The translations under genes and the position numbers were made by a program. A stretch of DNA of 64,000 nt from Candidatus Falkowbacteria bacterium (GTDB lineage Bacteria > Patescibacteriota > Patescibacteriia > Patescibacteriales > UBA12465). The notes beneath the pieces were generated by a model that worked only from the letters and a program-made list of their open reading frames with translations, had not been told where the DNA came from and did no database searches. Each line of letters starts with the position of its first letter. Positions within the stretch are counted from its first letter, which is position 1. The DNA lies in the NCBI GenBank assembly GCA_037137655.1, contig JBAXJX010000001.1, positions 97,188 through 161,187 of the forward strand, in the 5' to 3' direction. Below are positions 2-61,477 of the stretch, one piece after another.

Positions 2-955
2 GATGGGCCATGTTCTAGTACTAGTGCTTATACTTATAGCCCATCAAGCGATGGCAATTCTTATACAATTGCTTATTGCCTTGGTGGCAATGTTAGTGCT
101 CTTACTCCCGGAAAACATTGTGCGACACCGGCTGGAATTAGTGATGGAAGTGGTTGCGGAACCCCTGCTGGTGATAGTTTTTCTTGCCCTGGTATTCCGG
201 TGGTGCAGTATGAGGGCGGTCCATATGATGCTAGCGGCTTAGCAACAACTACTCCTGGCGCAAACACTTATTATCGGACGGTTAAAATCGGTGATCAGTG
301 TTGGTTGAGGGATAATTTAAATGTTGGGACTATGATCAGTCGTGGTAATTCTGCGGCTACTGGCTGTGTTAATGTTTGGGGTGCTAATGATTGGTCGTGC
401 CAAGTAAATGATAACTTGGTGGAAAAATATTGTTATAATAATGATATTAATAACTGTGTTACTAACGGTGGTTTGTATGAATGGTCGGAAGCTATGGGTT
501 TTTCTTACCAATGTAATGGAAGAGCGACATTTACTGATGGTGTTAGTGATTGTGGCACTGCACAGACATATACCATTGCAGCTAAACATCAAGGCATATG
601 TCCTGCTGGTTGGCATATTTCAAGTGATTCCGAACAAAGCGCTTTAGAACAGTTTTTAACTGACTCTGGTAATAGTTGTGATGCAAATAGAATTGGCTTC
701 GGTTGTCTTGGTGCTGGAACTAAATTAAAGGTTGGCGGATCATCGCATTTTTCATCTTATTTTGCTGGTTATGTGGGCATGGATGGCGTTTTTTACGATA
801 TTGGGTATCGTTTATTTTTTTGGTCAACATTGCCAATTCCCAATAATCAGCAGCTCCATTCTTGGTGGCGTGTATTAGATGTTGGTAATGGTGGCGTGGA
901 ACACGGATGGACGTATAAAACAAATGGATATTCCGTCCGTTGTGTAAAAGATTAA
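2..955 (+). CDS. Type IV pilin-like protein with C-terminal FISUMP-type domain, 5'-truncated by window edge
   Basis: Frame 2 is open from base 2 and is continuous with the 200..955 ORF. The translation [29 protein letters not shown]...[11 protein letters not shown] matches the pilin-head region of the full-length paralogs at 48224 and 60293. The C-terminal part has the pattern KIGDQCWLRDNLNVG...LYEWSEAM...GICPAGWHISSDSE...GYSVRCVKD. Confidence 0.8.
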   Translation, partial: DGPCSSTSAYTYSPSSDGNSYTIAYCLGGNVSALTPGKHCATPAGISDGSGCGTPAGDSFSCPGIPVVQYEGGPYDASGLATTTPGANTYYRTVKIGDQCWLRDNLNVGTMISRGNSAATGCVNVWGANDWSCQVNDNLVEKYCYNNDINNCVTNGGLYEWSEAMGFSYQCNGRATFTDGVSDCGTAQTYTIAAKHQGICPAGWHISSDSEQSALEQFLTDSGNSCDANRIGFGCLGAGTKLKVGGSSHFSSYFAGYVGMDGVFYDIGYRLFFWSTLPIPNNQQLHSWWRVLDVGNGGVEHGWTYKTNGYSVRCVKD

Positions 956-6714: not shown

Positions 6715-8436
6715 ATGAAAAATAAACGCGGCTTCACTCTAATTGAATTATTAGTCGTGATCGCCATCATCGGTATCTTGGCGACAATTGCAGTGGTCGC
6801 TTTGCAAAACGCTCGAGCCAAAGCGCGGGATGCTCGGCGGATTGCTGATGTGAAACAAATGCAAACAGCGTTGGAATTATTTTTCAACGACAAACAGCGT
6901 TATCCTACTATAGATGAATTTGCGGCCGGATCAATTTATTCTACTTCAACTTTAGGCACGACAACGTACATGGCCATCATCCCAACTCCGCCAACTCCAG
7001 CGGATGGTGCTTGTAACGCTAGTCAAAATAATTTTGTTTATAAAAATTCCAGCGATGGAAATTCGTATACTATTTCCTATTGCGTTGGTGGTCCGGTGGG
7101 CACATTAAGCTCTGGCGCTAATTGTGCAACGCCAGCGGGAATAAATAGTGGCGCTAATTGTGCTGCTTCCGGTGGTATTATTGCCGGTTGTAGTTCTAGC
7201 TCCTGGACACCAGATTTAAATTCAGCTTGTAGTGGACAAGTAATTACGCAAACTAGCAATTGTGGTTTAACACGACAAATTACAGCTACCGGCTCCGACA
7301 CCTCATGGACGCCAGCGCTTGGCACGGTTTGTAATGGCCAATCTTTTGCACAAAATGGTAATTGCGGTGGCACCCAAACAAGTCTTGGTTCTATGACCTG
7401 TTCTACGGGCCAAGTTTGTGTGAGTGGTACTTGCCAAGCCAGCCAATATACTCTAACTTACTCCGCCGGCACTGGCGGTGTTATTTCTGGAACATCACCG
7501 CAAACTGTAAATTATGGTGCTAGTGGCGCCCAAGTAACGGCCACACCAAATTCTGGTTATAGTTTTAGTTCTTGGAGTGATAATGGTTCTACTTTGGCCG
7601 CTAGAACCGATTCTAATGTGACAGCTAATATTAATGCCACTGCTAGTTTTGTTTGCGCTCCAAGTTGTAGTGGACGTAATTGTGGTAATGATGGTTGCGG
7701 CGGAGTTTGTGGCACTTGCGCCGGTAATTCGGTTTGCAACACTAGCCAAGTTTGTATTGATCCAATTGTTGTTAGTGGTTTAAAATTGTGGTTGCCATTG
7801 GCTAATGAAGTGGTGGATTATTCGAGTTCTCATGTTCCAATGACAAAACTGGCCGGTGTTACTTATGTACCTGGCAGAAAAGGTGTGGCCAGTTCCAGCG
7901 TTTATTTTGCGGGGACAAATTCAAGTTCCAATATTTATTCCACAGCCGCTCTAAGTATGTCGAGCGACAAAGTTGCAATGTCATTTTGGATAAATAGTAA
8001 GTGCACGGTTGGCGGTGAGTTAATCGAATATTCTTCAAACTTTAATGTGAATAATGCTTGGTATGTAGGTTTGACTGATTATTCTTTGGGCGCCGTTTCA
8101 TTTAATGATGCGGTTGGAAACAATACTTATAACTTAAGAGCAATATCTTCAAACTTAAATAACAATTGGCACCATATCGTGATTAATGCTGATCGTAGTC
8201 AAAGCGCCGCTGGCGAGGCCGCAATTTATGTTGATAATGTTTTAACATCTACAGTTCAAGGTGTTGGTGGCAGTTCATACGGAATGGATTTTAGTGGTAA
8301 CTGGGGAAATTACGTTATTTCGCTGGGAGCTAGAATTGGTGCTTCATCATATTTGTATAAAGGAAATTTACAAGACTTAAGAATCTATAATAGATTGTTG
8401 ACCACGAGTGAAATTAGCCTTTTATTTAATGAATAG
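6715..8436 (+). CDS. Type IV pilin-like protein with Cys-rich repeats, InlB-B-repeat-like segment and C-terminal LamG/concanavalin-like domain (573 aa)
   Basis: Prepilin signal MKNKRG|[17 protein letters not shown]. The first roughly 145 aa form a pilin head shared with the paralogs. [15 protein letters not shown]...[12 protein letters not shown] is a B-repeat-like segment. [13 protein letters not shown] motif present. The C-terminus LKLWLPL...[19 protein letters not shown] is typical of Laminin_G_3-type domains. Confidence 0.85.
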
Positions 8437-15736: not shown

Positions 15737-15746
15737 CACTATTTTT

Positions 15747-19327: not shown

Positions 19328-19328
19328 T

Positions 19329-20786: not shown

Positions 20787-20797
20787 TTATAAACCTT

Positions 20798-22363: not shown

Positions 22364-22383
22364 TGATTTGGCTGTAAATCAGA

Positions 22384-22412
22384 TTGACAAAACGTTTTAT
22401 TTATGATATAAT
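22384..22412 (+). promoter_or_regulatory. Near-consensus extended -10 sigma-70 promoter
   Basis: TTGACA (22384-22389), 17 nt spacer, TGaTATAAT (22404-22412). Confidence 0.75.
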
Positions 22413-22417
22413 ACGCT

Positions 22418-22435
22418 TATCATCAAGTGATGATA
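22418..22435 (+). promoter_or_regulatory. Perfect 8+8 palindrome just downstream of the -10 box (candidate operator)
   Basis: TATCATCA-ag-TGATGATA starts 6 nt after the -10 hexamer. Confidence 0.45.
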
Positions 22436-22484
22436 TTGAACATTAAAAATTAAATTAAATCTAATCTTAAAAAACGGAGGTTTT

Positions 22485-23588
22485 ATGTCGAATGATGGTA
22501 GTTTGATCGATTGGTTAAAAGGTGTTAATGGTGAGTACTCGCAGAGATTTTGTAGTCCTGGCGCCCAAGCTGAAAGAAGATCTTTTTGGTTGCGGTATCC
22601 GGTTGGGCTTTTCTGTTTCGGTTGCATGGACGGTCGCAACAATATTCACAACGCTACGGAGTTACCGGCCGGAATAATGAAAAATTATCGTCATGCCGGT
22701 CCTTGGGAATGGTCAAATTCTTTAGACCAACTTTTTTATGGCGATTTGATGCATTGGATTGATCAAGGTAAAGAATGTCTAGTTTTTGTAAGTTATCATT
22801 TTTCGAAATCGAACAAGGATTGGGGCTGTGCTGCTTTTGAATGTAATACTGACAAAGCCATCGCGTCCAATATTAGCTTCAAGGAAAAAATTGACCGAGT
22901 TTATGGCACCGATAGTGCGGTTTTCTCGGTTCTTCTTGGCTTTGAAACTGATGAAGAATCGATGATAATTCATGGCTGCGATTGTGATCAAGTTTTACGA
23001 GTGGCGGATTTGACTGAATTTAATGAGGCTGAGATTAAAGAAACGCTAACAACTTTATTTCCAAAATTTTCTTTAGAAGTTAAGGATTTGTTATTGCGCT
23101 TGATTTCTGGAAATTTTAATCATGTTTCAAAGAACCGTCGAAAAAATCGTCCAGCCATTGCTCTAAATCATAATGAGCGCGTGGTTGCCGTTGGACAAGG
23201 ATTAGGTTGGTTTTATCGTCCAAATCAGGCGATAATTATTGGAATGCATTCCAATAAATCGGGCGAAGCTATAGTAAAAGCGGTTACGATAGTTTATGAA
23301 AATTTACTTAGCGGTCGCATTTCCAGGGAAAAAGGTTTTATTCTTTTGGCGTCAGCCTCATTTCGGCGCGACGTCAGAGCGGAAAAATTGATGGGTTGTG
23401 TGGGAAGTGAAGAAAGAAGGGCTTGTGAGCGGGCCAAGGAAAACATGCGATTTGCCTTGGAAGTGATTGAAGCTGGTTTGCCAGAGGAAATCTATTCCGA
23501 GCTGTTATCGTATATGCATTTCCTTACAGTCATAACCGATTTGGACACCGGAAAATTCATCGAGGTGAAAGATGTTAATCTCGATTAA
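22485..23588 (+). CDS. Hypothetical protein with beta-carbonic-anhydrase-like (CsoSCA/DabA-style) Zn-site pattern; function unverified
   Basis: The CDS itself is well supported by the GGAGG SD, its own promoter and its own terminator. The functional call rests only on FGC47-M-D49-G-R51 (CxDxR), followed 58 residues later by YH105-x9-C115 (VFVSYHFSKSNKDWGCAA). Confidence 0.4.
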   Translation: MSNDGSLIDWLKGVNGEYSQRFCSPGAQAERRSFWLRYPVGLFCFGCMDGRNNIHNATELPAGIMKNYRHAGPWEWSNSLDQLFYGDLMHWIDQGKECLVFVSYHFSKSNKDWGCAAFECNTDKAIASNISFKEKIDRVYGTDSAVFSVLLGFETDEESMIIHGCDCDQVLRVADLTEFNEAEIKETLTTLFPKFSLEVKDLLLRLISGNFNHVSKNRRKNRPAIALNHNERVVAVGQGLGWFYRPNQAIIIGMHSNKSGEAIVKAVTIVYENLLSGRISREKGFILLASASFRRDVRAEKLMGCVGSEERRACERAKENMRFALEVIEAGLPEEIYSELLSYMHFLTVITDLDTGKFIEVKDVNLD

Positions 23589-23703: not shown

Positions 23704-24159
23704 ATGGACGAGCAGGAACAGGCTGACGAGTTGGCGGCCGCTAAACAAAAAGCTAAAAATGCTGGCGTAACATCTGGCGGTGACAATAATGATAGTGCTA
23801 AGTCATCACCAAAACAGAATAAGATTAAAGAGGGAACTGGCAAACTTTTAAAGCAATTTTGGTTAGATATTCCTGCCAGTTTTGGATTCACTATTCTGTT
23901 TATAGACTTATTCTATCTTTTGTGGAAGATTTTACCTGATTGGTTTGGTAAACCGGGGCATGAATGGGTACAGGCTGAAATCGCCAAGACTTCACCGGAA
24001 GAGGCGAAAAAAGTTGGTGATAAAATTTCTTTGGTGGAAAATTTAGGCTGCTGTTGTGTGAATATTCCTGGTTGTTTCGTCCTTTTATTACTTATTGTTA
24101 TTATTTATGCCATGCTTCATCCAGTTGAATTCGGTTGGATGGCATTAACAGGGGGCTAA
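23704..24159 (+). CDS. Small membrane protein, first gene of the T4SS-like cluster (possible pilin/VirB2-like role, unverified)
   Basis: 151 aa. Charged N-terminus, two hydrophobic helices and a CCC motif in helix 2. No recognisable family motif. Confidence 0.6.
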   Translation: MDEQEQADELAAAKQKAKNAGVTSGGDNNDSAKSSPKQNKIKEGTGKLLKQFWLDIPASFGFTILFIDLFYLLWKILPDWFGKPGHEWVQAEIAKTSPEEAKKVGDKISLVENLGCCCVNIPGCFVLLLLIVIIYAMLHPVEFGWMALTGG

Positions 24160-24177
24160 TAAAATTTATCACAAACA

Positions 24178-27100
24178 ATGAAAAAAATATTTTCAAAAAA
24201 GAATACCTTTATTTTCTCAGTGACACTTTTATCGTCGCTCGCGATTTTTGCTGTGGCTCGTCCGGCTCATGCCAGTGAAGTCATTGCCGGTATTATCGGC
24301 GGTATACTTTCAGTTGTCATTTATTTTATTGGGCAGCTTCTTTCTTTGGTAATTTCTGTTTTAATCTCTATTGCTCAATACAGTGCTTTTGGTACCGCCG
24401 CACCGGTCGTTTTTGGTTGGATGATTGTGCGCGATATTTGTAATATGTTTTTCGTACTCATTCTTCTTATTATTGCCTTTGCGACAATTTTACACGTGGA
24501 AGAATATAACTATAAAAAATGGCTGCCAAAATTAATTATGATGGCGGTCTTAATTAATTTCTCTCGTTTGATTTGTAATATTTTTGTGGATTTTGCCCAA
24601 GTGGTTATGTTAACCTTCGTTAATGGTTTTAAAGATGTTGGCGGCGGTAACTTAACTGAAATGTTGGGTATTAATGATTGGATCGGAACAATGTCAACCG
24701 ACCCAACGGCCACAGTTACTTTTACTACTATTGTTGGTACTTATTTATTGGCTTTGATTTATTCCATAATTGCTTTAATTACAGTTGTGACTATGGTGGC
24801 TGTTTTGGCTATGCGCATGGTCATGCTTTGGATTTATATAACTTTATCACCCTTAGCTTATTTGCTAAGTGCTTTTCCGCAAGGTCAACAATATGCTTCT
24901 AAGTGGTGGTCAGAATTCAGTAAAAATTTAGTGATCGGACCAATCCTAGCTTTTTTTATCTGGTTATCATTTGCTTCTTTAGGTGGCACAGCTGATTTAG
25001 CCGCTAACAACGCGACTGATCCGTTGAAAGGTATTCCTAGTGATCCAAGTAGTACGCCAAGTGTTGGTTTAACTGAATCCGGCTCGGCTGATAACATGAT
25101 TAAATTTATTATTTCCATCGGTATGTTACTTGGCGGTTTGCAAATTGCGCAGGAATTGGGCGGTGAAGCGGGTAAGATGGCCGGTAAAGTTTCTTCCAAA
25201 GGTTTCTCGATGGCGAAAGCTGGTGCGGGTGCAGCCGGACTTTATGCAGCTAAACGTGCTGGCGCAGGTGCAGCTGGCGCAGCCGGCAGCGCTGCTAATT
25301 GGGCTGGACAAAAAATTAATTTAGCCGGTAAAAGCGTCGGCCTTAAGGGTGATACTAATTTAATGGGTCGAGCCTTGCAAAAAACTGGAGCAATTGGAAC
25401 TGGTTTGCAGGCTGATATGATTACTACCAGAAAAAAAGCGGCGGTAAAATCACGCCAAGAGTTATTAGAAAAACTTGGTTTTGGCGAGACTGGCGCCACA
25501 GCTCTTGTTGAGGCTACTGAGCCAATAAAGAGACGTTTAGATTTTGGTGACAAAATTAAGAAAAGTATTAGCGCTAATACAACCAAAGGACAATCGTTGC
25601 TTACCGATGGTCAAGAATTAATAGATAGAGGTGAAGATGCTAAAGTTAAGGCTATGACCGCTGGTAAATTAAGACTGACCGGCGAAAAAGAAAGACAAGA
25701 AGGTGAAAACACTATCAATGATGCTGACAGAAAAATTAAATTCAATGAGAATGAAATTATTAATTTAGCTAAGAATAATATTAACGATCCTCGTATTGCG
25801 CAAATTAGACAGGAAAACAAAAAATTGGAAGACGACAAGATTCACGGACAGTCAATGATTGATAGTGGTCAATCCAAGCTTGATGATGTTGCCGCTATTG
25901 AAGCTGCTGCTGCCACTGCTGACGCTGACATTGCCAAGGGCGTGGCTATGAAAAATCAAGGTACTGAAATATTAAATAAAAAAGGATTTTCTTCTACTGC
26001 TTTTGGTAAAAATGTTATTAAAATGATTCCTAATATTGGTGATATGGCGGTTGGGACTACAAATAAAGCAGCTAAAAAAATGGCTGAAGAATCTTTGACA
26101 GCTAAAGATTTTGTTAAAAATATTAAAAATACTAAAGAGTGGCCGGATTATATAAGAGATACTGATGCGCATCAATGGGCTGGTAAGAGTAGTATGAATT
26201 CCCAACAAAAAGCCAACTTTAAAGCGATGGCCGGTGATCCTGAAGCCAGTGAAGGTGTTCGTGTTCAACTTGAAAAATGGAGCGGAGAAAGAAATGCGGA
26301 TGGTAGTCATGATAAAGATTTTCTTAAAGTGGCTGACGCTATTTCACGCGCGATTGCTGGACATCAAAAAGGTGGTGGTGATATGAAGAATTTAAGTGGA
26401 ATTTCAAGTCTCTTAACTACTGTTAGCTCGGAAGTTTCCAATCCAAAGGTTATGAAATCCCCAAGTGATTATAAAGACAAGGTTAGCTATTCTAATTATA
26501 ATCGGGAGCGATCTGTTGCTCAGGGCGGATTTAGCGCGGCGAAATTTAATGAAAACCAAGAGTCAGATAAAACTAAGAGCGCCAATAGTATTGCAATTGA
26601 TTTTGCTGAGTTGCAAGGCATTGCCTCTTTTGGTGGTAAGGATTTTAAAACTAATGCTGATGCGGCCAATTTAGATTCTGGTCAAATTAAAGACTTTACC
26701 GTTCATCTGGAAAGCAAATTACAGGGCATGAAACCAAATGATGGTGGCTACCAAGAATTACAAACCGCGATTAATAATTTAAAAAATAATAAAGTTGAGG
26801 CTTTATCAATTAGAAATTCTGGTGTTAAAAAAGGTTTCCGGGGTGATTTGGCGGCTGAATACCATGAAAATACTCATAAAGCTGGTGTTAAATCAGAAGA
26901 TTTGGCTCATGGCTTAGAGTCGATGATGATGGATATGCGCTTGACTGGTAGTGATAAAACTACAAAAGAAAACAATTCCTTTGAGGTTGGTCAAAAGGCA
27001 GCGGCTCTTGAAAGACAGGGCGTACCACATGATAAAATTTTAGAACAAATGAAGCTTGAGATTGTTGACCGTGGCGGTAAACATAAGGAAGCTTTTGCCC

Positions 27101-27345
27101 AACCAGCGCCAGTTAATGTTGACTTGAAGAACATTTTATCTGGTGGTGGACAGCCAACAATTCAAAATATTAATAACACTACTAACAATAATACATCTAT
27201 TAATAATGTTGTTAATAATGTCTTGGAAAATGACAAGAGTAAAGGTTCTGATATCTTGCAAGATATAAAAAAACAAGGTGACAAAACATTTAAAACTGTT
27301 GCAGATTTAAAGAAAAGCAATAATAAAGGACGATTTATCTCATAA
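24178..27345 (+). CDS. VirB6/TrbL-like polytopic membrane protein with a roughly 700-aa hydrophilic C-terminal extension (1055 aa)
   Basis: Signal-like N-terminus and about 6-8 TM helices in residues 1-330, with the LSPLAYLLSAFPQGQQYASKWW region typical of TrbL/VirB6-type proteins. An A/G-rich linker, a coiled-coil-like charged region and an Asn-rich tail follow. Confidence 0.6.
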   Translation: MKKIFSKKNTFIFSVTLLSSLAIFAVARPAHASEVIAGIIGGILSVVIYFIGQLLSLVISVLISIAQYSAFGTAAPVVFGWMIVRDICNMFFVLILLIIAFATILHVEEYNYKKWLPKLIMMAVLINFSRLICNIFVDFAQVVMLTFVNGFKDVGGGNLTEMLGINDWIGTMSTDPTATVTFTTIVGTYLLALIYSIIALITVVTMVAVLAMRMVMLWIYITLSPLAYLLSAFPQGQQYASKWWSEFSKNLVIGPILAFFIWLSFASLGGTADLAANNATDPLKGIPSDPSSTPSVGLTESGSADNMIKFIISIGMLLGGLQIAQELGGEAGKMAGKVSSKGFSMAKAGAGAAGLYAAKRAGAGAAGAAGSAANWAGQKINLAGKSVGLKGDTNLMGRALQKTGAIGTGLQADMITTRKKAAVKSRQELLEKLGFGETGATALVEATEPIKRRLDFGDKIKKSISANTTKGQSLLTDGQELIDRGEDAKVKAMTAGKLRLTGEKERQEGENTINDADRKIKFNENEIINLAKNNINDPRIAQIRQENKKLEDDKIHGQSMIDSGQSKLDDVAAIEAAAATADADIAKGVAMKNQGTEILNKKGFSSTAFGKNVIKMIPNIGDMAVGTTNKAAKKMAEESLTAKDFVKNIKNTKEWPDYIRDTDAHQWAGKSSMNSQQKANFKAMAGDPEASEGVRVQLEKWSGERNADGSHDKDFLKVADAISRAIAGHQKGGGDMKNLSGISSLLTTVSSEVSNPKVMKSPSDYKDKVSYSNYNRERSVAQGGFSAAKFNENQESDKTKSANSIAIDFAELQGIASFGGKDFKTNADAANLDSGQIKDFTVHLESKLQGMKPNDGGYQELQTAINNLKNNKVEALSIRNSGVKKGFRGDLAAEYHENTHKAGVKSEDLAHGLESMMMDMRLTGSDKTTKENNSFEVGQKAAALERQGVPHDKILEQMKLEIVDRGGKHKEAFAQPAPVNVDLKNILSGGGQPTIQNINNTTNNNTSINNVVNNVLENDKSKGSDILQDIKKQGDKTFKTVADLKKSNNKGRFIS

Positions 27346-27350
27346 TAAAT

Positions 27351-28385
27351 ATGGCTTATCTAGAAGATTGTATAAAAAAATATAGTGATTTGCCCGGGGA
27401 GACTAAGGCGGCTTTTGGTGCGCCAGAAGTAATTGCTAAAATCACCACCCTGGAAAAACGGTATAAAGTTAAACTAGATTTTGTAGTTCTTTTGTTGGCA
27501 ATCAATGAATTAGATTTGGAGGACATCGCTGGATATTTAGCGGAAAAGTTTAATTTAGAAATAGAATTGGCTGACGAGATAGAGCTTAAGCTAAGAGATG
27601 AGATTTTATCTTTGGTCACCAAAAAACTACCGGCGAGCGATGTGGCGGCACCAGAATTTAGCTTGTTAACTCTTAGCGTTAAAGATAAAAAGATTGTGCT
27701 ATCTGAAGCTTTTTCTGAAAACTTGCTAACAATCTTTAATGATGATCAGAGTTATTTGCAAGATTTGAATGTTATCGCTTTTCAGACCTTTAATGCTGAT
27801 CCTAACTTCGAGGACAAGATGACTGAACTCCTATATAAAAACCAAGAAGTTTTAACACATAAACCGTTTATTGCCGACAATGAAGATGTGACGGCAACGG
27901 TTGCGCGCTGGTTGAAAGATTTTATTGCCAAAAACGGCAGCGATATTTTTTCTAATATTGTGCTGGCAAAATATTTAACTGCTTCGGAAAATGCTAAAAT
28001 TTTAGATCCGGAAGAACGGAATTTGTTAAAAAAACTTTTGAAATTATATCGTAATTTAGTATTTTTTCCGGATAGCATGAAAGATGTTCCAATTGAGGAA
28101 TGGGAATTATTTCCCATTAACCGTGATCAAGTAGAAAAAGTATTTCATCCAACAAAATTAAGTACACCCGATGTTTCTGCTCCAATAATTGATCATGCCG
28201 AAGCCGATGCGGAAGCAACCGCGGCGGCTAAGAAAATTTTAGAAGAGTTGGAAAATGGCCAAACTAAAATTATGCCAAAAGAGGAGAGTCCAGAGATAAA
28301 GTCATTGCGAGCGATGGCTGAACAATATCCACTTGGTAGTTTGGAGCGTCGCGCAATTGAATCGGAAATTAAAAAGAAATTATAA
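27351..28385 (+). CDS. Hypothetical protein, paralogous N-terminal domain shared with the next gene
   Basis: 344 aa. N-terminal YLEDCIKKYSDLPGETKAAFGAPEVIAKITTLEKRYKVKLDF aligns with the N-terminus of the 28431 product. Confidence 0.7.
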   Translation: MAYLEDCIKKYSDLPGETKAAFGAPEVIAKITTLEKRYKVKLDFVVLLLAINELDLEDIAGYLAEKFNLEIELADEIELKLRDEILSLVTKKLPASDVAAPEFSLLTLSVKDKKIVLSEAFSENLLTIFNDDQSYLQDLNVIAFQTFNADPNFEDKMTELLYKNQEVLTHKPFIADNEDVTATVARWLKDFIAKNGSDIFSNIVLAKYLTASENAKILDPEERNLLKKLLKLYRNLVFFPDSMKDVPIEEWELFPINRDQVEKVFHPTKLSTPDVSAPIIDHAEADAEATAAAKKILEELENGQTKIMPKEESPEIKSLRAMAEQYPLGSLERRAIESEIKKKL

Positions 28386-28430
28386 GAAAACCTGGATCCC
28401 CGCCTGCGCGAGGATGACGGTTGAAAAAAT

Positions 28431-30005
28431 ATGTTTGAATACTTAGAAAAATTTAAAAATCTCTCGGCCGATCTTAAGGCTATAATTTCCACTCCGGAAG
28501 TTTTAAAGGCGACAGCTGATTTAGAAAAAAAATATAATGTTGATTTAGCAATCACAATTATGCGCGTGATGGTTAAAGAAATAAAGCTTGATGAAATTCC
28601 ACTTCATCTTTTTACGGATCTAGCCCTAGGACAGGCGGCAGTTGATACTTTAACAATAGAGTTGAAGGAGCAGGTCTTTGCTAAAGCTTTAGATTATTTA
28701 CAAGCGGACGATAAAAAAGTTATAGCGCCAGAACCGGTTATAATTACACCTAAAGTTGTTGTGCCAGAAATTAAACCTGAGGCGATATCCGAACCGGAAA
28801 TAGTAAAAGAAATTGATGAAGAGATCGCTGTCGAAGCAGCTATGCCTGAAATGAAATTAGATGAATATTCAGCTAGGATTTATGAAGCAATCGAGAAGAT
28901 TGTGGAAGAATTTAATGTTGGTGGCGAGCATCTGATGAAATTCCAGGACGCTATAAAATTATATTTACGCGAAATTAGATCTAGAATTGATACCCGCGCC
29001 TTTTTACTAAAAGCAATCCAGGACGGCGGTTTAGGTTTAAGTGATTTAATGGTTGATAAAATACTTAGTCGCGCTGATGCTTTAAGAAATGAAATTAATG
29101 TTAGCTTGAAAAAAGATACTAAGCCAAGTTTTTCCATTATGGATAAAATTAATGAGCTTAATAAAATGGGAGCTGATCGTGATGTAAGTTACGATTTATC
29201 AAAAATTTTAGACCTTAAACACGAGTTAAAAGGTGGCTTAGATTTGAGTCATGAAATTGCCGCGCCAACAACAGCGATTCCAAATATGGAAATTGCCGCA
29301 CCGGTGGTTGTAGATAAAAAAATTGAAGCACCGATTGCTCCAATAACTCCAGTTAAAGCGACTCCGATTAGTTTAGGGGCAATTAACCCAGCCGAACTTT
29401 TGGACGCCGAGGATATTTTACCATCAGTTAAAAATGTTGATGAGACACCAATTTTAAGTTCAATTCCAAGTGGAATTTTGGATTCAGCTCTAGCTTCAAT
29501 TCCAAAAGAACCATTTTTTGCAAAAACCGAATTAGCACCAAAACCAATTGCGGAGGTAAAGGCAACTCCAATTATGAATAAAGTCACACCGGTAGTTTTA
29601 ACCCCAACTCCAACACCGGCACCAAGTTCTAGCAAGTTTATTCCTGGTAAAGTTAAAATTGAAGATATTAAATCAATTAAAACCATGAGCCCAATTGATG
29701 AATTGTTGTATATGGACTTGGTAAATTTTAGAAGATTGGGTATTAGTGTGGATGAAATAATGGAAAAAATAAAAGATCGGGTTGAGTTGATGCGCGCCGA
29801 TGACTATGAAAAAGGTTTGGCGGCAATTGCTGCTTGGCGCCGATCACCAGTTAGTAAACTTTACTTAAAAATATTGTCCCGAGCTACATCAGAAGATAAA
29901 ACAATTCCAGCTGTGATTGAAGATTTGAAAAATAGTAAACAAGATTATTTAAGTATGGATGAAATCGAGGGAATTATAATGTTAAATAATAGATTGCGCT
30001 TTTAA
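28431..30005 (+). CDS. Hypothetical protein with the same N-terminal domain, a Pro/Ala/Ile-rich middle and a conserved C-terminal region
   Basis: 524 aa. N-terminal YLEKFKNLSADLKAIISTPEVLKATADLEKKYNVDLAI. Confidence 0.7.
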   Translation: MFEYLEKFKNLSADLKAIISTPEVLKATADLEKKYNVDLAITIMRVMVKEIKLDEIPLHLFTDLALGQAAVDTLTIELKEQVFAKALDYLQADDKKVIAPEPVIITPKVVVPEIKPEAISEPEIVKEIDEEIAVEAAMPEMKLDEYSARIYEAIEKIVEEFNVGGEHLMKFQDAIKLYLREIRSRIDTRAFLLKAIQDGGLGLSDLMVDKILSRADALRNEINVSLKKDTKPSFSIMDKINELNKMGADRDVSYDLSKILDLKHELKGGLDLSHEIAAPTTAIPNMEIAAPVVVDKKIEAPIAPITPVKATPISLGAINPAELLDAEDILPSVKNVDETPILSSIPSGILDSALASIPKEPFFAKTELAPKPIAEVKATPIMNKVTPVVLTPTPTPAPSSSKFIPGKVKIEDIKSIKTMSPIDELLYMDLVNFRRLGISVDEIMEKIKDRVELMRADDYEKGLAAIAAWRRSPVSKLYLKILSRATSEDKTIPAVIEDLKNSKQDYLSMDEIEGIIMLNNRLRF

Positions 30006-30008
30006 ACT

Positions 30009-30452
30009 ATGCAACAATTTACCGTACCACAATTTATTGACGTGGAATCAAAAATTATCGGCCCGCTAACGGTGCGCCAGTTTTTGATAATGTTGGCGGC
30101 AGCGGCTTTTATCTTTATTGCTTATAAAGCTTTTGATTTTACTTTGTTCGTTGTTGTGTCGGTGTTTATATTTTTAGCGGCCGTGGTCTTTGCTTTTGTT
30201 AAAGTTAATGGTCAAGGTTTTCATTATTTTATTTTAAATCTCCTTAGTACTTTACGTAAACCAGGTATCCGAATTTGGAATCATCATTTAACAACTTATG
30301 CGGACAGCGAAGAGCGGGAAATAAAATTTGAGAGTACAGAAATAAATAAAAATTTAAAAGCCTCTCAGGTGGCGGAATTATCCTTAGTGGTGGATACTAA
30401 GGGAAGATATCGCGGCAATAATCCTGACGCAGAAGATATTAAAAATCAATAA
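30009..30452 (+). CDS. PrgI-family (VirB3-like) T4SS membrane protein
   Basis: MQQFTVPQFIDVESKIIGPLTVRQFLIM followed by two TM helices, which is the typical PrgI-family N-terminus. It lies just upstream of the VirB4-like ATPase. Confidence 0.65.
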   Translation: MQQFTVPQFIDVESKIIGPLTVRQFLIMLAAAAFIFIAYKAFDFTLFVVVSVFIFLAAVVFAFVKVNGQGFHYFILNLLSTLRKPGIRIWNHHLTTYADSEEREIKFESTEINKNLKASQVAELSLVVDTKGRYRGNNPDAEDIKNQ

Positions 30453-30462
30453 TTTTTAAAAT

Positions 30463-31146
30463 ATGGCTAACGAAAATAAATTAGTACGCAATAAAGTTAC
30501 TGTTTCAACACAACAGTATTTAGATATTGCCGAAATTAAAGATGACACTGTGATTTTGCGCGATGGAACTTTGCGCGCGGTTTTATCGGTTTCTAGTATT
30601 AATTTTGCCTTGAAAAGTGAGGATGAACAAAATGCGGTTATTTCATCTTATGTTAGTTTTTTAAATAATATTAATTCCATGTTGCAAATTGTGATTCAAT
30701 CACGCGAATTGGATATTCGCGGCTATATGGAATATTTAGCGGAGAAAGAAAAGAGTCAAACTAATAAATTACTTAAAATCCAAACCGGGGAATATATTGA
30801 ATATATCAAAGAATTAACTTCTATCGGTAAAATCATGACTAAAAGTTTTTATGTGATTGTGCCTTATAGTCCAACCTCTGATACGCATAAAGGATTTTTC
30901 TCGAGCTTAGCTGAAACTTTAAAACCAGCTACACTATTGAAGCTGAAAGAAGTGCGTTTTTTAAAGTATAAAGAATCTTTGGCACGGCGGATTGATAGCG
31001 TGGTTGGGGGCTTGGGTTCGATGGGTGTCGGTACTAAACAATTAAACACGCAGGAACTTATTGAATTATTTTATAAAACTTATAACCCGGAGGTTTCCAA
31101 AAATCAGAATTTAGTTGACATGGAAAAGCTTCGCGTTGAGATGTAA
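30463..31146 (+). CDS. T4SS-cluster protein without a P-loop; N-terminal segment resembles the start of Gram-positive VirB4/TraE-type proteins
   Basis: QQYLDIAEIKDDTVILRDGTLRAVLSVSSINFALKSEDEQNAV. No Walker motifs. 227 aa. Confidence 0.5.
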   Translation: MANENKLVRNKVTVSTQQYLDIAEIKDDTVILRDGTLRAVLSVSSINFALKSEDEQNAVISSYVSFLNNINSMLQIVIQSRELDIRGYMEYLAEKEKSQTNKLLKIQTGEYIEYIKELTSIGKIMTKSFYVIVPYSPTSDTHKGFFSSLAETLKPATLLKLKEVRFLKYKESLARRIDSVVGGLGSMGVGTKQLNTQELIELFYKTYNPEVSKNQNLVDMEKLRVEM

Positions 31147-31164
31147 TTATTTTCTTAAATAAAT

Positions 31165-33111
31165 ATGCCTAATTTTAAAATATCACAACTTGATGACGAA
31201 ACGAAAGCAGCCAGCAAACAGCCGGAAGTTTATGCTGTGGGTGATAAGGTTGTTGTCCGCAAAACGATTGAAGAGAACGTTGAACTAACGCAAGAAATTA
31301 TTGAGGAAGAGTTAGCTTATCGTAAAGGAACATTGTCGGTGCGTGATTTGATTTCACCATCGAGCATGAAAATTACCTCAACTTATATGATGTTGGGGCA
31401 GAAATTTGCCCGCACCTTATTTGTGGTTAACTACCCACGTTATATTAGTGTTGGTTGGTTTGCACCGATTATCAATTTGAATAATGCTTTTGATGTGGCC
31501 ATGTTCTTCTACCCCGTTAATAGTGCTGTGATTTTAAAACAATTAAAAAATCGCGTGGGTAATATTGAAGCTCAGGTGATGTCTGATTCAGAAAAAGGCC
31601 AACCACGTGATCCAATTCGAGAAACAGCCTTGCGTGATATTGAATTTTTGCGCGACGCCTTAACTCAGGGAACAGAAAAGTTTTTTCAATTCGCTTTATA
31701 CGTTACAATCTACACAGAAACCCTTGAAGAATTGGATCGCTTATCTGATCAAGTAGAAGACGTTTTTGGTTCACGTTTAGTTTTTTCTAAGCGCGCCTTT
31801 TTTCAATCCGAACAAGGTTTTAATTCCACTCTACCGCTTTGTAATGATGAGCTATACATTACTTTTAACATGAATTCGTCACCAGCCGCTTCATCTTTTC
31901 CGTTTATTTCTTCAGAACTAACCAGTGACCGCGGTATCCTTTATGGTATTAATCGCCATAATAATAGTTTAATTTTATTTGATCGTTTTTCTTTGCCGAA
32001 TGCTAATTCGGTGGTTTTTGCCACTTCTGGTGCTGGTAAAAGTTATTGTATTAAATTGGAAGTATTGCGTTCTCTGATGATGGGCAGTGATGTGATTGTT
32101 ATTGATCCTGAGTATGAATATAAACATTTGTCCGAAGCTGTTGGAGGTACTTATATTAATATTTCTTTGTCGAGTGAAAACAAGATTAATCCATTTGATT
32201 TGCCTCGTTCCATCGGCGGTGAAGCTAAACCAAAAGATATTATTCGAAGTGCGGTTATAACTTTGAAGGGTTTGGTGCGCTTAATGGTAGGTAATCTAAC
32301 TAACGAAGAAGATTCGATTGTGGATCGAGCCCTACTTGAAACTTACGCTAAAAAAGATATTACGCCTGATTCTGATTTGTCTAAAATCGAACCACCAACT
32401 TTATCTGACTTCTGCCAAGTATTAGAAGGTATGGAAGGGGCTGATTCCTTAGCGGAACGTTTGAAAAAATATACCGAAGGTACTTTTGCTGGATTACTTA
32501 ACAGTCCGACTAATGTGGAGATGGATAATCAATTAGTTTGCTTCTGTGTGCGTGATTTAGAGGATGAGTTGCGTCCAATTGGAATTTATACTATTGTTAA
32601 TTATATTTGGAATGTGGTTCGCAGTCAGGTTAAAAAGAGAATTTTGATTATTGATGAGGCATGGTGGATGATGCAAAACCCCGATTCTGCTAAGTTTATT
32701 TTTGCCCTTGTGAAACGCTGCCGTAAGTATTATTTAGGTGTGACCACAATTACCCAAGATGTAAGTGACTTTTTGGAATCACCTTATGGTCAAGCGATTG
32801 TGACTAATTCCCAATTACAGATTTTGCTTAAACAATCACCAGCCGCGATTGATCGCGTGCAGAAAACTTTTATGTTAACCGAGGGTGAAAAATTCTTATT
32901 GTTGGAATGTGGTTTAGGTGAGGGAATATTCTTTGCTGGTAATAAACATGTGGCAATTAAAATTGTGGCTTCTTATTCTGAAGATCAATTGATTACTTCC
33001 GATCCTCGCCAATTATTAGAGCTAGAGGAAGCGAAGAAAAAATATGAGGAAGAAATGGCTGAAGAAGAAGCAGCAGCCGATGAAGCCCGAAAAATAAAGG
33101 AAGCTAAATAA
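31165..33111 (+). CDS. VirB4/TraE/PrgJ-like T4SS ATPase
   Basis: Walker A VVFATSGAGKSY (about 32030-32053), Walker B RILIIDEAWWM (about 32641-32665), and the YPRYISVGWF N-domain motif. Confidence 0.85.
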   Translation: MPNFKISQLDDETKAASKQPEVYAVGDKVVVRKTIEENVELTQEIIEEELAYRKGTLSVRDLISPSSMKITSTYMMLGQKFARTLFVVNYPRYISVGWFAPIINLNNAFDVAMFFYPVNSAVILKQLKNRVGNIEAQVMSDSEKGQPRDPIRETALRDIEFLRDALTQGTEKFFQFALYVTIYTETLEELDRLSDQVEDVFGSRLVFSKRAFFQSEQGFNSTLPLCNDELYITFNMNSSPAASSFPFISSELTSDRGILYGINRHNNSLILFDRFSLPNANSVVFATSGAGKSYCIKLEVLRSLMMGSDVIVIDPEYEYKHLSEAVGGTYINISLSSENKINPFDLPRSIGGEAKPKDIIRSAVITLKGLVRLMVGNLTNEEDSIVDRALLETYAKKDITPDSDLSKIEPPTLSDFCQVLEGMEGADSLAERLKKYTEGTFAGLLNSPTNVEMDNQLVCFCVRDLEDELRPIGIYTIVNYIWNVVRSQVKKRILIIDEAWWMMQNPDSAKFIFALVKRCRKYYLGVTTITQDVSDFLESPYGQAIVTNSQLQILLKQSPAAIDRVQKTFMLTEGEKFLLLECGLGEGIFFAGNKHVAIKIVASYSEDQLITSDPRQLLELEEAKKKYEEEMAEEEAAADEARKIKEAK

Positions 33112-33126
33112 GTTTAATAAAAAAAT

Positions 33127-33741
33127 ATGATAAACGAAAACAAAAAGATGGGTATATTTATAGTGGTTATCGCTATTGTTTTGTTGGCGGCCATGTTAAT
33201 TTATACTTACGGTTTTAAGAAGAATCAAAATAATGCCAATAACGTGCCAGCGGCTATCACTGGGCCAGTTAAAGATTTGATGGCGGAGGCTAAAAATAAA
33301 CAACCAGCGCCGACATATAGTTTTGACGCCCAAGCCGAAGCTAATCGTCAATTAGGCTCTGAAGATTTGCGTAAAATGGCTTTACCATTCGCGGAGAGAT
33401 TTGGTTCATTCTCCAATCAATCCAATTATAGTAATTTTGAAGATTTGAAAATTTTCATGTCTGATAACATGAAGACTTGGTCTGATTCTTATGTAGTTGA
33501 TTTGAAAAAGAGTGCTGGTGATACCACGGTTTATTATGGTATTACCACTATTGCTATTTCGGGTGAAGTGCAAAAATTTGATGATGCTGCCGGTCAAGCG
33601 CAAGTTTTGGTTTCAACCCAAAGACGCGAGCTTGGGGCTGATTCATCAGCTGCCAAAGTTTTTAATCAAGATATAACTTTAAACTTTGTTAAAATTAAAG
33701 GTGAATGGAAAGTTGACTCAGCTTATTGGGCGAAAAATTAA
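33127..33741 (+). CDS. Membrane-anchored protein, possibly a VirB8/PrgL-like (NTF2-like) T4SS component
   Basis: A single N-terminal TM helix. The C-terminal alpha+beta-looking domain ends in IKGEWKVDSAYW. Position after VirB4 fits. The family was not verified. Confidence 0.45.
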   Translation: MINENKKMGIFIVVIAIVLLAAMLIYTYGFKKNQNNANNVPAAITGPVKDLMAEAKNKQPAPTYSFDAQAEANRQLGSEDLRKMALPFAERFGSFSNQSNYSNFEDLKIFMSDNMKTWSDSYVVDLKKSAGDTTVYYGITTIAISGEVQKFDDAAGQAQVLVSTQRRELGADSSAAKVFNQDITLNFVKIKGEWKVDSAYWAKN

Positions 33742-47926: not shown

Positions 47927-47955
47927 AGAGCATCAGAAATGGTGCTCTTTTTATT
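47927..47955 (+). terminator. Rho-independent terminator
   Basis: AGAGCATC-agaaat-GGTGCTCT followed by ttttattt. Confidence 0.7.
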
Positions 47956-48033
47956 TATTTTTAGTGGTATTTGCTCAACACTTTGACATTGCCAAATTTT
48001 TTTATTATAGTGTTAGGGTAAAAAGAATAGATA

Positions 48034-48120
48034 GGAGAGATGCCTGAGCGGTTTAAAGGAACAGTCTTGAAAACTGTCGACCATGAAAGTGGTCCGTGAG
48101 TTCGAATCTCACTCTCTCCG
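48034..48120 (+). tRNA. tRNA-Ser (anticodon UGA)
   Basis: Acceptor GGAGAGA/TCTCTCC, anticodon loop CTTGAAA, long variable arm, T loop AGTTCGAATCT. Confidence 0.93.
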
Positions 48121-48130
48121 CATATTAATA

Positions 48131-48157
48131 AAAACGCCGGTAATTTGGCGTTTTTTT
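48131..48157 (+). terminator. Rho-independent terminator after tRNA-Ser
   Basis: aaaaCGCC-ggtaatt-GGCGttttttt. Confidence 0.8.
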
Positions 48158-48223
48158 GTTTTACCTGTTTATGTTGCTATTACGGTGTGTTATAATTTAT
48201 TTATAATAAAATAACTTATTTTA

Positions 48224-49477
48224 ATGAAAAATAAAAAAGCCTTCACTTTAATCGAACTCTTGGTCGTTATCGCTATTATCGGCATTTTAGCGACTATCGC
48301 AGTTATCGCCCTGCAAAACGCCCGAGCGAAAGCACGCGATGCTCGTCGCGTGGCTGATGTGAAGCAAATGCAAACCGCGCTCGAATTATTTTTTAATGAT
48401 GCGCAACGTTATCCAACGGCTAATGAATTAACTTCAGGCGGAGCATTAGTGCATTCAGATGGTTATTCAACAACCACCTATATGGCGATAATCCCAACCC
48501 CACCATCTCCAGCTGATGGCTCATGTACCAGTACTAGTGCTTATTCCTATTCACCAACATCTGATGGTGCTTCGTACTCTATTTCTTATTGTGTTGGCGG
48601 TCCGGTTGGAACACTAGCTTCTGGTTCTCATTGTGCTACTCCGGCTGGAATTAATGATGGTAATAGTTGTGGTGCGGGGAGCGGAGGTGGTGGTGGAGGA
48701 AATATTCCTGTTATTACCGTCGGGACCCAACATTGGATGACAAAGAATTTAAATGTTGGCACTAGAATTGATAGTATTAGCGGAGCGCCTTGCGTTAATG
48801 TTTCTAATCAAGGTGGTGGTTGGTCTTGTCAAACCGATCCTAATACGGTCGAAAAATATTGTTATAATAATAACGAGGCTAATTGCACTACTGACGGTGG
48901 TCTTTATGAGTGGGCAGAAGCAATGGATTTGCCTTACCAATGTAATTATACTAACTACACTTGCGACGGCACGACTTGTACCTCAACCGAATATCCAAAT
49001 AGTTACGCTAATGGCGGTTGTACTTTTCCTGATCCGACGACCACCATGAGACGGGGTATTTGTCCTATTGGTTTTCATATTCCTGGCGACAGTGACAATG
49101 TAAGTGCTTTGGCAGATTTTAGGATTTTAGAGCAATATTTAGGCACCGCTAATTGTGATACGACTGGTCAGTGGGGATGTACTCCTGCTGGAGATAAATT
49201 AAAACAAGCCTTAGATAATCCTGATTCTAACAATAATGGCTGTGTTAATCCAAACGACGGTGTTTGTGGTTTGTCTGGTTTTAATGCTTTATTGGCCGGC
49301 TACCGTAATGGCGATGGCTCGTTTGGTGCTCGAGGTGTTCTTGCTTTTTTATGGTCGTCTATGTATAGCGGTCCGGATGGCGCCTGGAACCATTATCTGC
49401 ATCCTGGCATTTCTGGAATTTTACGTAATCCCAACATTCGAACGAATAGCTATTCAGTTCGCTGTGTTCAGGACTAA
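48224..49477 (+). CDS. Type IV pilin-like protein with C-terminal FISUMP-type domain (417 aa)
   Basis: MKNKKA|[17 protein letters not shown] prepilin signal, a pilin head, a Gly-run linker, then [14 protein letters not shown]...LYEWAEAM...[14 protein letters not shown]...SYSVRCVQD. Confidence 0.85.
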
Positions 49478-60292: not shown

Positions 60293-61477
60293 ATGTTTCA
60301 TAAATTTAAAAAAGCTTTTACACTCATCGAACTTCTTGTTGTTATTGCCATCATTGGTCTCTTGGCAACTATTGCAATTGTCGCACTAAACAATGCTCGT
60401 TCGAAAGCGCGCGACGCGCGCCGCGTAGCGGATGTGAAACAAATCCAAACTGCTCTCGATCTATATTACAATGACGCCGGTCATTATCCACTAAATAATA
60501 TTTTTGCCTCTGGCACCATATTCACAACTTCCACGGTTACCGGTACAACAACTTACATGCAAATCGTTCCACATGCTCCAACTCCAACTGATGGTTCATG
60601 TAACGTAGCCGCTAATACTTATTCTTACGCCGTTGATAGTGAAGGTAAGGCTTACAACATTGGTTACTGTCTTGGTGGTCCAGCCGGATCAATGGCCGCT
60701 GGCTATAAATGTGCTACTCCTGATGGTGTCTTTAATATAGCTTGTGCTGGCGCAGCTACTTCAACCAACATGGTTGGTGGCGGCGGAGCAGCTAACTTCA
60801 CTTCTTGTGGCGACCAAGTTTCTTATGGTGGTAAGAATTATGACACGGTGCAAATTGGAACTCAATGTTGGTTTGTGCAGAATTTGAATATCGGTACTGA
60901 AATTCTTGGCGCTAATAATCAGAGTGATGTTTCTACATCATCTACTCCAACTGATTTCCAAAAATATTGTTTTGGTGATATGCCAACTAGCTGCAATACT
61001 AATGGCGGACTTTATCAATATCATACTGCTATGGCCTGGCCAGCAACCTGCGATAATCATAACGGTTTTTCACCATGTGACTTAACCTACCCACATCAAG
61101 GCATGTGTCCAACTAATTGGCACATTCCAAGTGATGATGAGTGGCATGCATTGGAGTTGTTTTATTCAAATCCTTCCAATGAAACTGCTTGTTCAGCTTT
61201 GTCGGTTGGTGATCATTGTCCTGGGGCTGGTACCGCTTTAACTCAAATTGGAGCAGGAAATTTTAATGCTATTTTTGGCGGTTTTCGCAATACTGATGGA
61301 TCATTTATTTATGGTGGTTCAAATCAATATAATGGAGCTGGAGAATTTCATTGGTGGTCAGCTACACCACCAACCAATAGCACTGCCTGGGAACGTTCAA
61401 ATAATTACCCGGGATATATTTGGAGAACTTATGCTAGTAGAACAAGGGGATACTCCATCCGCTGTATTCATGACTAA
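60293..61477 (+). CDS. Type IV pilin-like protein with C-terminal FISUMP-type domain (394 aa)
   Basis: MFHKFKKA|[17 protein letters not shown], a pilin head, then VQIGTQCWFVQNLNIG...LYQYHTAM...GMCPTNWHIPSDDEW...GYSIRCIHD. TGcTATAAT extended -10 at about 60258-60266. Confidence 0.85.
   Translation: MFHKFKKAFTLIELLVVIAIIGLLATIAIVALNNARSKARDARRVADVKQIQTALDLYYNDAGHYPLNNIFASGTIFTTSTVTGTTTYMQIVPHAPTPTDGSCNVAANTYSYAVDSEGKAYNIGYCLGGPAGSMAAGYKCATPDGVFNIACAGAATSTNMVGGGGAANFTSCGDQVSYGGKNYDTVQIGTQCWFVQNLNIGTEILGANNQSDVSTSSTPTDFQKYCFGDMPTSCNTNGGLYQYHTAMAWPATCDNHNGFSPCDLTYPHQGMCPTNWHIPSDDEWHALELFYSNPSNETACSALSVGDHCPGAGTALTQIGAGNFNAIFGGFRNTDGSFIYGGSNQYNGAGEFHWWSATPPTNSTAWERSNNYPGYIWRTYASRTRGYSIRCIHD

Follow-up and report, generated by a model that had tools for sequence, protein, structure and literature searches.

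Modular type IV pilins combine a class III signal and a pilin module with a short linker and a further domain whose signature is not particular to pili (Raynaud et al., 2021, PNAS, PMC8179133), and two of them in Streptococcus sanguinis, PilB with a von Willebrand factor A module and PilC with a concanavalin A (ConA)-like lectin module, are adhesins located at the pilus tip (PMC8179133, PMC9934059). [quoted passage not shown] Here we describe a gene built along these lines at positions 48224-49477 of a 64,000-nucleotide stretch of DNA (hereafter the window), which lies on a 965,192-bp contig of a Candidatus Falkowbacteria bacterium (ENA ERZ4201038 NODE_1), together with its relatives in the same genome. 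The proteins are pilin-like and join one conserved head to swapped C-terminal domains of the FISUMP or laminin G (LamG) type, and we think it likely that they are bimodular type IV pilins, forming a large paralog family of pilus-displayed binding domains.

The encoded protein has the parts that define a modular pilin, an IPR012902 pilin module followed by a linker and a domain that is not pilus-specific; the entry for that domain, FISUMP, we take to be IPR011871. In Dataset S1 of Raynaud et al. (2021, PMC8179133), the commonest modular-pilin architecture is IPR012902-PF13385 (229 proteins) and the fifth commonest is IPR012902-IPR011871 (40 proteins), and the representatives of both include CPR bacteria, among them Falkowbacteria. 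A preliminary description of the window had held that the pilin-FISUMP fusion is not a characterised architecture, which is true of experimental work, but the fusion is already catalogued in that dataset and is routinely annotated by NCBI and JGI. Database homologs of the pilin-FISUMP protein number at least 997, and nearly all among the matches listed carry both domains. The additions made here are how many members the family has in a single small genome, the finding that its head copies in full the pilin next to pilC, a hypervariable terminal segment, and module exchange both old and recent.

The tail of the family member at 6715 resembles that of S. sanguinis PilC in belonging to PF13385, of the LamG/ConA-like superfamily. 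The pilin moiety of PilC is unusually short (Shahin et al., 2023, PMC9934059), whereas the Falkowbacteria head is full and major-pilin-like. The Falkowbacteria genes also differ from those of S. sanguinis in being scattered among housekeeping genes and not placed in the pil locus, in numbering at least 17 against two modular pilins, and in carrying a FISUMP tail, which unlike the tails of PilB and PilC has never been characterised. PilX1 and PilX2 of TM7x are likewise CPR type IV pilus subunits with large accessory C-terminal domains, which are lectin-like, but their tails are of the jelly-roll and beta-propeller types, they are encoded in the pil locus by single genes and not by a family, and no PilD signal peptide is predicted for them. 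The FISUMP/TIGR02145 proteins of Fibrobacter and Bacteroidota belong to the same hidden Markov model domain family, and one paralog matches Lcl_C, the domain of the Lcl_C/DUF1566 proteins Lcl (Legionella) and LdtA, although the fold similarity to Lcl is marginal; in those organisms FISUMP and Lcl_C are as a rule carried on lipoproteins or on collagen-like adhesins and not, as here, on pilins. Pam pili, a donor-strand-exchange system, were considered and set aside as unrelated.

Domains were called with Pfam and NCBIfam profiles at their curated cut-offs, and column entropy, invariance and the full-length AlphaFold2 model are based on an alignment of 104 homologs. Family genes and their flanks were retrieved across the same genome, of which about 180 kb (~19%) was examined, and the family total is a lower bound. 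Loci outside the window carry L numbers (L006, L007, L009, L057-L078, L081, L083, L084 and L085), and P0013 and P0408 are proteins of the same genome.

The 417-residue product of the 48224 gene is 100% identical to the NCBI entry 'FISUMP domain-containing protein' of Candidatus Falkowbacteria bacterium. Prepilin peptidase is predicted to cleave it between A and F, with Ala at -1. Its pilin module contains four Cys (101, 123, 137 and 149) and shares 60% identity along its entire length with a 147-aa pilin encoded beside pilC. The AlphaFold2 model has a predicted local distance difference test score (pLDDT) of 88 overall and about 90 in the pilin module, and it is shaped like a lollipop, in which residues 9-60 form a helix followed by a small beta-sheet head, and a linker that is disordered at residues 150-159 joins these to a second, compact domain; a model of the tail by itself has a pLDDT of 92 and a predicted template modelling score of 0.91. 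The linker is the main site of insertion and deletion across the family (mean insert in homologs, 15.5 residues). A pilin profile search of the PDB returned Geobacter pilin, Myxococcus xanthus PilA and GspG at E values of 1e-17 to 1e-11, with solved pilins overall down to 1e-8, while in a Foldseek search with the full-length model the pilin matches were weak, the top one being PAK pilin with a probability of 0.85 but an E value of 0.098.

The window holds four family members, as the preliminary description had said: open reading frames at 6715-8436, 48224-49477 and 60293-61477 and an open frame at 2-955, all on the + strand. The class III signals reported for the full-length copies are recognised by N_methyl and TIGR02532 above their cut-offs on all three, whose leaders read MKNKKA/FTLIE, MKNKRG/FTLIE and MFHKFKKA/FTLIE (slash, predicted cleavage site). 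A back-translated FTLIEL occurs three times in the window against 0.01 expected by chance, and F, T, L and E of the signal are invariant in the homologs. The assignment of FISUMP tails to the 48224, 60293 and 2-955 copies is upheld by matches to Fib_succ_major (85.7-92.5 bits against a cut-off of 33.9, model positions 1-187) and TIGR02145 (73.7-83.8 bits against 41.65), at E values of 2e-25 to 6e-24, and that of a LamG tail to 6715 by a Laminin_G_3 match above its cut-off; an InlB-B-repeat domain in 6715 is an addition to the earlier list. The window edge truncates the 2-955 copy, whose complete form is P0013, a 415-aa N_methyl and FISUMP gene of which it makes up the 3' end (954 of 954 nucleotides identical); P0013 is followed by hrcA and grpE in the same order as in the window. 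Also agreeing with the preliminary description is the NCBI name of the organism, which it had taken for a CPR bacterium.

Across the genome at least 17 genes share the pilin head. Their tails are FISUMP in 11, LamG in two and Lcl_C (formerly DUF1566) in one; two more, in proteins of 449 and 778 residues, match no family above its Pfam cut-off, and the last gene is split by an in-frame stop and has a Gly-rich tail. The final 40 residues of the Lcl_C paralog are matched as well by the closing part of the FISUMP model. The genes are dispersed among housekeeping genes, and nine of 16 paralogs have a TGnTATAAT element of their own 3' of a terminator while the rest abut the preceding gene; at the 48224 gene the TGTTATAAT element is located 3' of a terminator at 48130-48155. 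Since all copies have an intact start codon, leader and full head, and nine of the 16 their own TGnTATAAT, the paralogs are not silent cassettes. Most window genes have no Shine-Dalgarno sequence (an SD-like motif is present in about 7 of 48), and the idea that its absence marks low expression of the modular pilins was rejected for that reason; the one informative case is the strong sequence ahead of the pilin gene beside pilC. The split gene (L085:5180-6307) has an in-frame TAA after codon 109, found in several assemblies, beyond which the same frame runs on through a Gly-rich domain of 245 residues; the gene is a pseudogene or else is read through.

A search with the head alone found at least 4,681 CPR pilins, which among the matches listed are mostly stand-alone proteins of 137-155 residues, 55-71% identical over at least 95% of the head, and in about ten related CPR loci such a stand-alone pilin gene lies directly 3' of pilB and pilC. 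The GTDB representative genomes do not include that of the window, and their best match to the head is 64%. As the preliminary description had noted, the window itself is free of pilus assembly genes, with zero matches to T2SSE, T2SSF, PilM or peptidase A24 among its open reading frames. The machinery is absent from the window but present in the genome, since pilM, pilB, pilC and pilT were found elsewhere in it. PilC (P0408, on the 965-kb contig) was located with the PilC of RA.bin4, the closest GTDB reference genome found, as query, and the locus reads pilM, genes for proteins of 322, 245 and 126 residues, pilB (588 aa), pilC (402 aa) and the 147-aa pilin, with domain matches to PilM_2, T2SSE (the 588-aa protein) and T2SSF (P0408). 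The 147-aa pilin gene is preceded by GGAGGAGG, an unusually strong Shine-Dalgarno sequence. Its product is 55-65% identical to every head over the full length and ends exactly at the head/linker boundary, and the heads are therefore complete major-pilin-like modules. The heads are full major-type pilin copies and not specialised minor-pilin stubs, and the naming of these proteins as tip or minor pilins is therefore no more than plausible. PilT (384 aa) scores 404 bits against a cut-off of 319. A 1,008-aa protein (L084:5856-8882) consists of a full PilB/GspE-type ATPase fused to a second T2SSE ATPase domain; the genes for this fusion and for the PilT-family ATPase each lie a few kb from a paralog.

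The pil loci of two other genomes have features of their own. RA.bin4 encodes pilM, pilN-like, pilO-like, pilB, pilC and a 145-aa pilin, then FemAB-like and YbeY-like proteins (both unrelated), three minor pilins and a 322-aa Lcl_C protein. The last (L009:13433-14401), which is membrane-anchored and carries Lcl_C (DUF1566), closes the pil locus, and a C-type-lectin-like domain may be part of the core tip complex in the RA.bin4 lineage. In Falkowbacteria ELA424 (L006:3975-8357), PilC has 1,460 residues, with an N-terminal extension of about 1,000 residues that weakly matches CBM_4_9, and four stand-alone pilins come after it in tandem; a stretch of about 12.7 kb is repeated exactly on the contig (L006/L007), through either a real duplication or an error of assembly.

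In the reading as pilus-displayed binding domains, prepilin peptidase would remove the leader, and PilM, PilB and PilC, whose genes are present, would add the subunit to a type IV pilus in which the 147-aa pilin is the main component. The appended domain would then be displayed at the pilus tip or, by way of the linker, on the pilus surface, where it would bind to a surface, probably to a glycan or a protein of another cell, and retraction by PilT, also encoded, could draw the cell onto that target. Different tail domains would provide alternative binding specificities, while purifying selection and occasional gene conversion or module exchange, both of which are seen in the sequences below, would keep the heads compatible with assembly. 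Lateral incorporation along the shaft is conceivable from the major-pilin-like head, E5 and the flexible linker.

Several points weigh against this reading. Steric clashes could arise within a filament if a major-pilin-like head carries a domain of 250 residues. The crude motif G[GAMS]GD.K did not reveal PilD in the fetched loci (~180 kb, ~19% of the genome); PilD is reported to be widespread in CPR (Méheust et al., 2019), and the earlier suggestion that a genome lacking prepilin peptidase would speak against processing is answered in part, by the presence of pilM, pilB, pilC and pilT, with PilD itself not located in that share of the genome. The epibiotic lifestyle of this organism is assumed by analogy with CPR in general. 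The FISUMP tail has no significant relative among solved structures, its best PDB match being the C-terminal domain of Legionella Lcl, which is weak (E 0.1, probability 0.75, 43 aligned columns), and the C-type lectin-like domains (CTLDs) of snake venoms match more weakly still (E >1). The sugar-binding motifs EPN, QPD and WND are present in none of the 17 paralogs, and so 'lectin' is to be taken as a hypothesis and not as a finding; the term 'lectin-like' in the preliminary description is a weak inference, the CTLD fold match being marginal. Glycan binding by the FISUMP tail is, from its sequence, conjectural.

Variation in the family is concentrated in the tail. Mean column entropy is 1.21 bits in the head and 1.98 bits in the tail, and the tails diverge most in their last ~50 residues, in the segment at residues 361-410 directly before a near-invariant SVRC..D end. 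A binding surface carried by a fixed scaffold should look like this, and by analogy with the position of the variable region (VR) in targets of diversity-generating retroelements (DGRs) whose fold is that of a C-type lectin, we infer that the segment is a candidate ligand-contact surface. Fib_succ_major, DUF1566 and DUF823 form the CLec2 class of DGR targets, in which the literature places Fib_succ_major by VR alignment. Among predicted viral structures, the tail finds its clearest relatives in long proteins, annotated as FISUMP, from tailed phages that are uncultured (E 9e-12 and 4e-5), and it matches DUF1566, tail-fibre and receptor-binding proteins weakly. FISUMP also occurs in giant proteins of up to 7,786 residues that hold many tandem copies, with 4-15 matched stretches each (best matches from a search of 1.84 billion representatives), and is therefore an extracellular module widely reused beyond pilins; these giant multi-FISUMP proteins dominate that search, so that it gives no clean number for pilin-FISUMP fusions.

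The heads, in turn, are held by purifying selection, with dN/dS of 0.14-0.27 across comparisons, while the FISUMP domains are 40-46% identical among themselves with dN/dS of about 0.35. The statement that the 6715 and 48224 heads are about 90% identical is accurate (92% across residues 1-62, where 29 third positions differ); when 141 residues are compared, the identity is 75%, with a proportion of synonymous differences (pS) of 0.64, which is saturated, and dN/dS of 0.14. Head relationships cross tail types, which means that the modules have been shuffled: the closest heads to that of 48224 (FISUMP) belong to one paralog with an unknown tail and one FISUMP paralog (85% each), the closest to that of 6715 (LamG) belongs to a FISUMP paralog (84%), and the closest to that of P0013 (FISUMP) belongs to the Lcl_C paralog (84%), and the paralog with the most divergent head has a FISUMP domain nearest that of P0013.

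A more recent event is visible between the 60293 gene and a 387-aa paralog at L081:4230-5393. Their heads differ at 11 of 429 nucleotides (~97% identical) and the downstream parts at 224 of 687, with a pS of 0.092 for the head and 0.55 for the tail; where both genes encode the same amino acid, 10 out of 140 head codons and 47 out of 127 tail codons are different (Fisher p 1.7e-9). Uniform divergence after duplication cannot give such a mosaic of head and tail, which points to gene conversion or module exchange, and we read the tract of near-identity listed in the table as a recent product of one or the other. L083, a third member that is truncated at a contig end, has the end of the head and the linker in common with them and a different breakpoint, and the promoter region of 60293 almost exactly matches that of yet another paralog. 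The claim that the duplication is old and not recent accordingly stands for the pairs within the window and fails for the family: the 60293 and L081 heads are nearly identical while their tails are saturated, so recombination is recent as well as old. A fragmented assembly from the same population breaks at or near several family genes, as real repeats would lead one to expect. In an unrelated metagenome-assembled genome, CAKPFG01 ('uncultured Bacilli', L057-L078), at least 17 pilin-like genes have 5' ends of 365-500 nt that are 92-98% identical in nucleotide sequence while their 3' parts diverge, which is again a pattern of homogenised heads and variable tails.

Like the pilE/pilS system of Neisseria, the family has a conserved pilin N-terminal region, many copies with variable C-terminal parts, and recombination between copies. 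The pilS copies of Neisseria are silent and lack a 5' end. In the present genome, by contrast, every copy is complete, often with a promoter-like site of its own, and the homogenised part is the head, with no variable part donated to a single expression locus. The family might also be seen as a recombining library in which gene conversion keeps the head interchangeable so that about 20 binding domains can be carried on one pilus, perhaps along its whole length and not at the tip alone, and the similar pattern in CAKPFG01 suggests that such a strategy may be general; this stronger version is possible but doubtful.

Other explanations were weighed against the same observations. The pilin-like N-terminus could serve as a class III export signal and anchor only, the proteins being held in the membrane or in short pseudopilus- or 'bindosome'-like assemblies and capturing nutrients or polysaccharides without polymerising. 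Class III signals do serve the sugar-binding proteins of the archaeal bindosome, the BasE model is among the weak ATPase matches, CPR cells depend on scavenging, and FISUMP occurs in very large multi-copy surface proteins that are not pilins. The retention of a whole globular pilin module under purifying selection, with 55-65% identity to the pilin beside pilC, and the invariance of E5 in the 104 homologs argue the other way, and we think this explanation unlikely. The same full-length, major-pilin-type heads would suit a scheme in which each paralog is an alternative major pilin that builds a whole filament coated with FISUMP or LamG domains, with switches of expression giving antigenic or host-range variation; the genes are all complete, many have a promoter-like element, and the copies recombine. 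There is, however, a canonical 147-aa pilin with its unusually strong Shine-Dalgarno sequence beside pilC, a 250-aa domain on every subunit would be hard to accommodate in space, neither an invertible promoter nor a switching element was seen, and the characterised modular pilins considered here are low-abundance subunits, which makes whole filaments of these proteins decidedly unlikely.

The hypervariable segment raises a further question, whether the C-terminal 50 FISUMP residues are rewritten by mutagenic retrohoming. Membership of Fib_succ_major, DUF1566 and DUF823 in the CLec2 target class fits this, as do literature counts of FISUMP in 43 DGR targets and of a GspG-type pilin domain in a few, and residues 361-410 stand where a DGR variable region would. 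Nevertheless, no template-repeat-like copy of the last 210 nt of any paralog was found in ~166 kb of genome, the Pfam annotation of the genome regions read contains no reverse transcriptase, and the paralog tails differ by indels and saturated substitution and not by adenine-specific changes. We regard retrohoming as very improbable here, and return to modular pilins displayed on a pilus as the preferred reading.

Table. Features of the 48224 gene and of the other family copies in the window (positions in the window)
Feature	Position	Strand	Remarks
Modular type IV pilin gene, 417 aa	48224..49477	+	leader, pilin module, Gly-rich linker, FISUMP domain
Class III leader peptide MKNKKA	48224..48241	+	read from sequence; N_methyl aa 1-26, E 2.4e-9
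Pilin module, aa 7-148	48242..48667	+	F1, E5, alpha-1 helix aa 9-60, beta-sheet
Flexible Gly/Ser linker, aa 149-163	48668..48712	+	pLDDT <50 at aa 150-159
FISUMP/Fib_succ_major domain, aa 164-416	48713..49471	+	14 Cys; PF09603 E 2.3e-25; TIGR02145 E 2.8e-20
Hypervariable gap-free segment, aa 361-410	49304..49453	+	entropy 2.2-2.9 bits in 104 homologs, almost gapless
Extended -10 promoter-like element TGTTATAAT	48188..48196	+	28 nt 5' of ATG; consensus match only
Paralog, 573 aa, pilin module then Cys-rich repeats	6715..8436	+	starts 3 nt after tatD
InlB-B-repeat (Flg_new_2) of 6715, aa 245-312	7447-7650	+	Pfam
Laminin_G_3 of 6715, aa 409-568	7939-8418	+	PF13385, 42.8 bits against cut-off 27.6
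Paralog, 394 aa, pilin module and FISUMP	60293..61477	+	FISUMP aa 186-392; 60848-61468
Tract of 98-100% nt identity, 60293 gene and L081:4230-5393 (387 aa)	60308..60714	+	first mature-pilin codons to head/linker boundary
3' part (317 codons) of pilin-FISUMP gene at window edge	2..955	+	FISUMP ~281-949

Immediately 5' of the 48224 pilin gene lies a tRNA-Ser(TGA) gene (48034-48121) with a strong promoter-like site of its own (47983-48011, 11 of 12 matches), flanked by two terminator-like hairpins (region 47927-48155), and at the other end the stop codon of the pilin gene overlaps that of a convergent recQ (49474-49477). GrpE (1740-2366) has an N-terminal extension of about 70 residues that is very rich in Cys, His, Asp and Gly (HNHDHECCGGNSCGGDCECDGDEECGGGCCDDKHCG...), a composition that suggests metal binding. 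A complex I- or group-4 [NiFe] hydrogenase-like module at 15197-23588, unusual for a CPR genome, includes Oxidored_q6, two Proton_antipo_M, NADHdh and a 30-kDa/49-kDa/NiFeSe fusion, and is followed by a protein that weakly matches the catalytic domain of carboxysome-shell carbonic anhydrase. Next to it, positions 23704-33741 hold a type IV secretion system-like cluster with several open reading frames that match no Pfam family, a 1,055-aa multi-transmembrane protein (24178-27345), a PrgI-family protein (30009-30452) and a VirB4/TraG-type P-loop ATPase (31165-33111). This is probably the type IV secretion system of Patescibacteria, reportedly homologous to monoderm conjugation machinery.

CPR bacteria (Patescibacteria) make up a large share of bacterial diversity, and their few cultivated members all live attached to other microbes. 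For the recognition of their hosts, type IV pili are leading candidates. In this Falkowbacterium, roughly 2% of a 1-Mb genome is given over to pilin-borne, probably ligand-binding domains, which have been both shuffled and diversified. The family is not a new kind of system but a tractable case for the evolution of modular pilins, and its FISUMP, LamG and Lcl_C tails are concrete candidates for binding studies. If the copies do act as a recombining library, the exchange of head, tail and promoter would be a DGR-independent means of diversifying host or ligand range.

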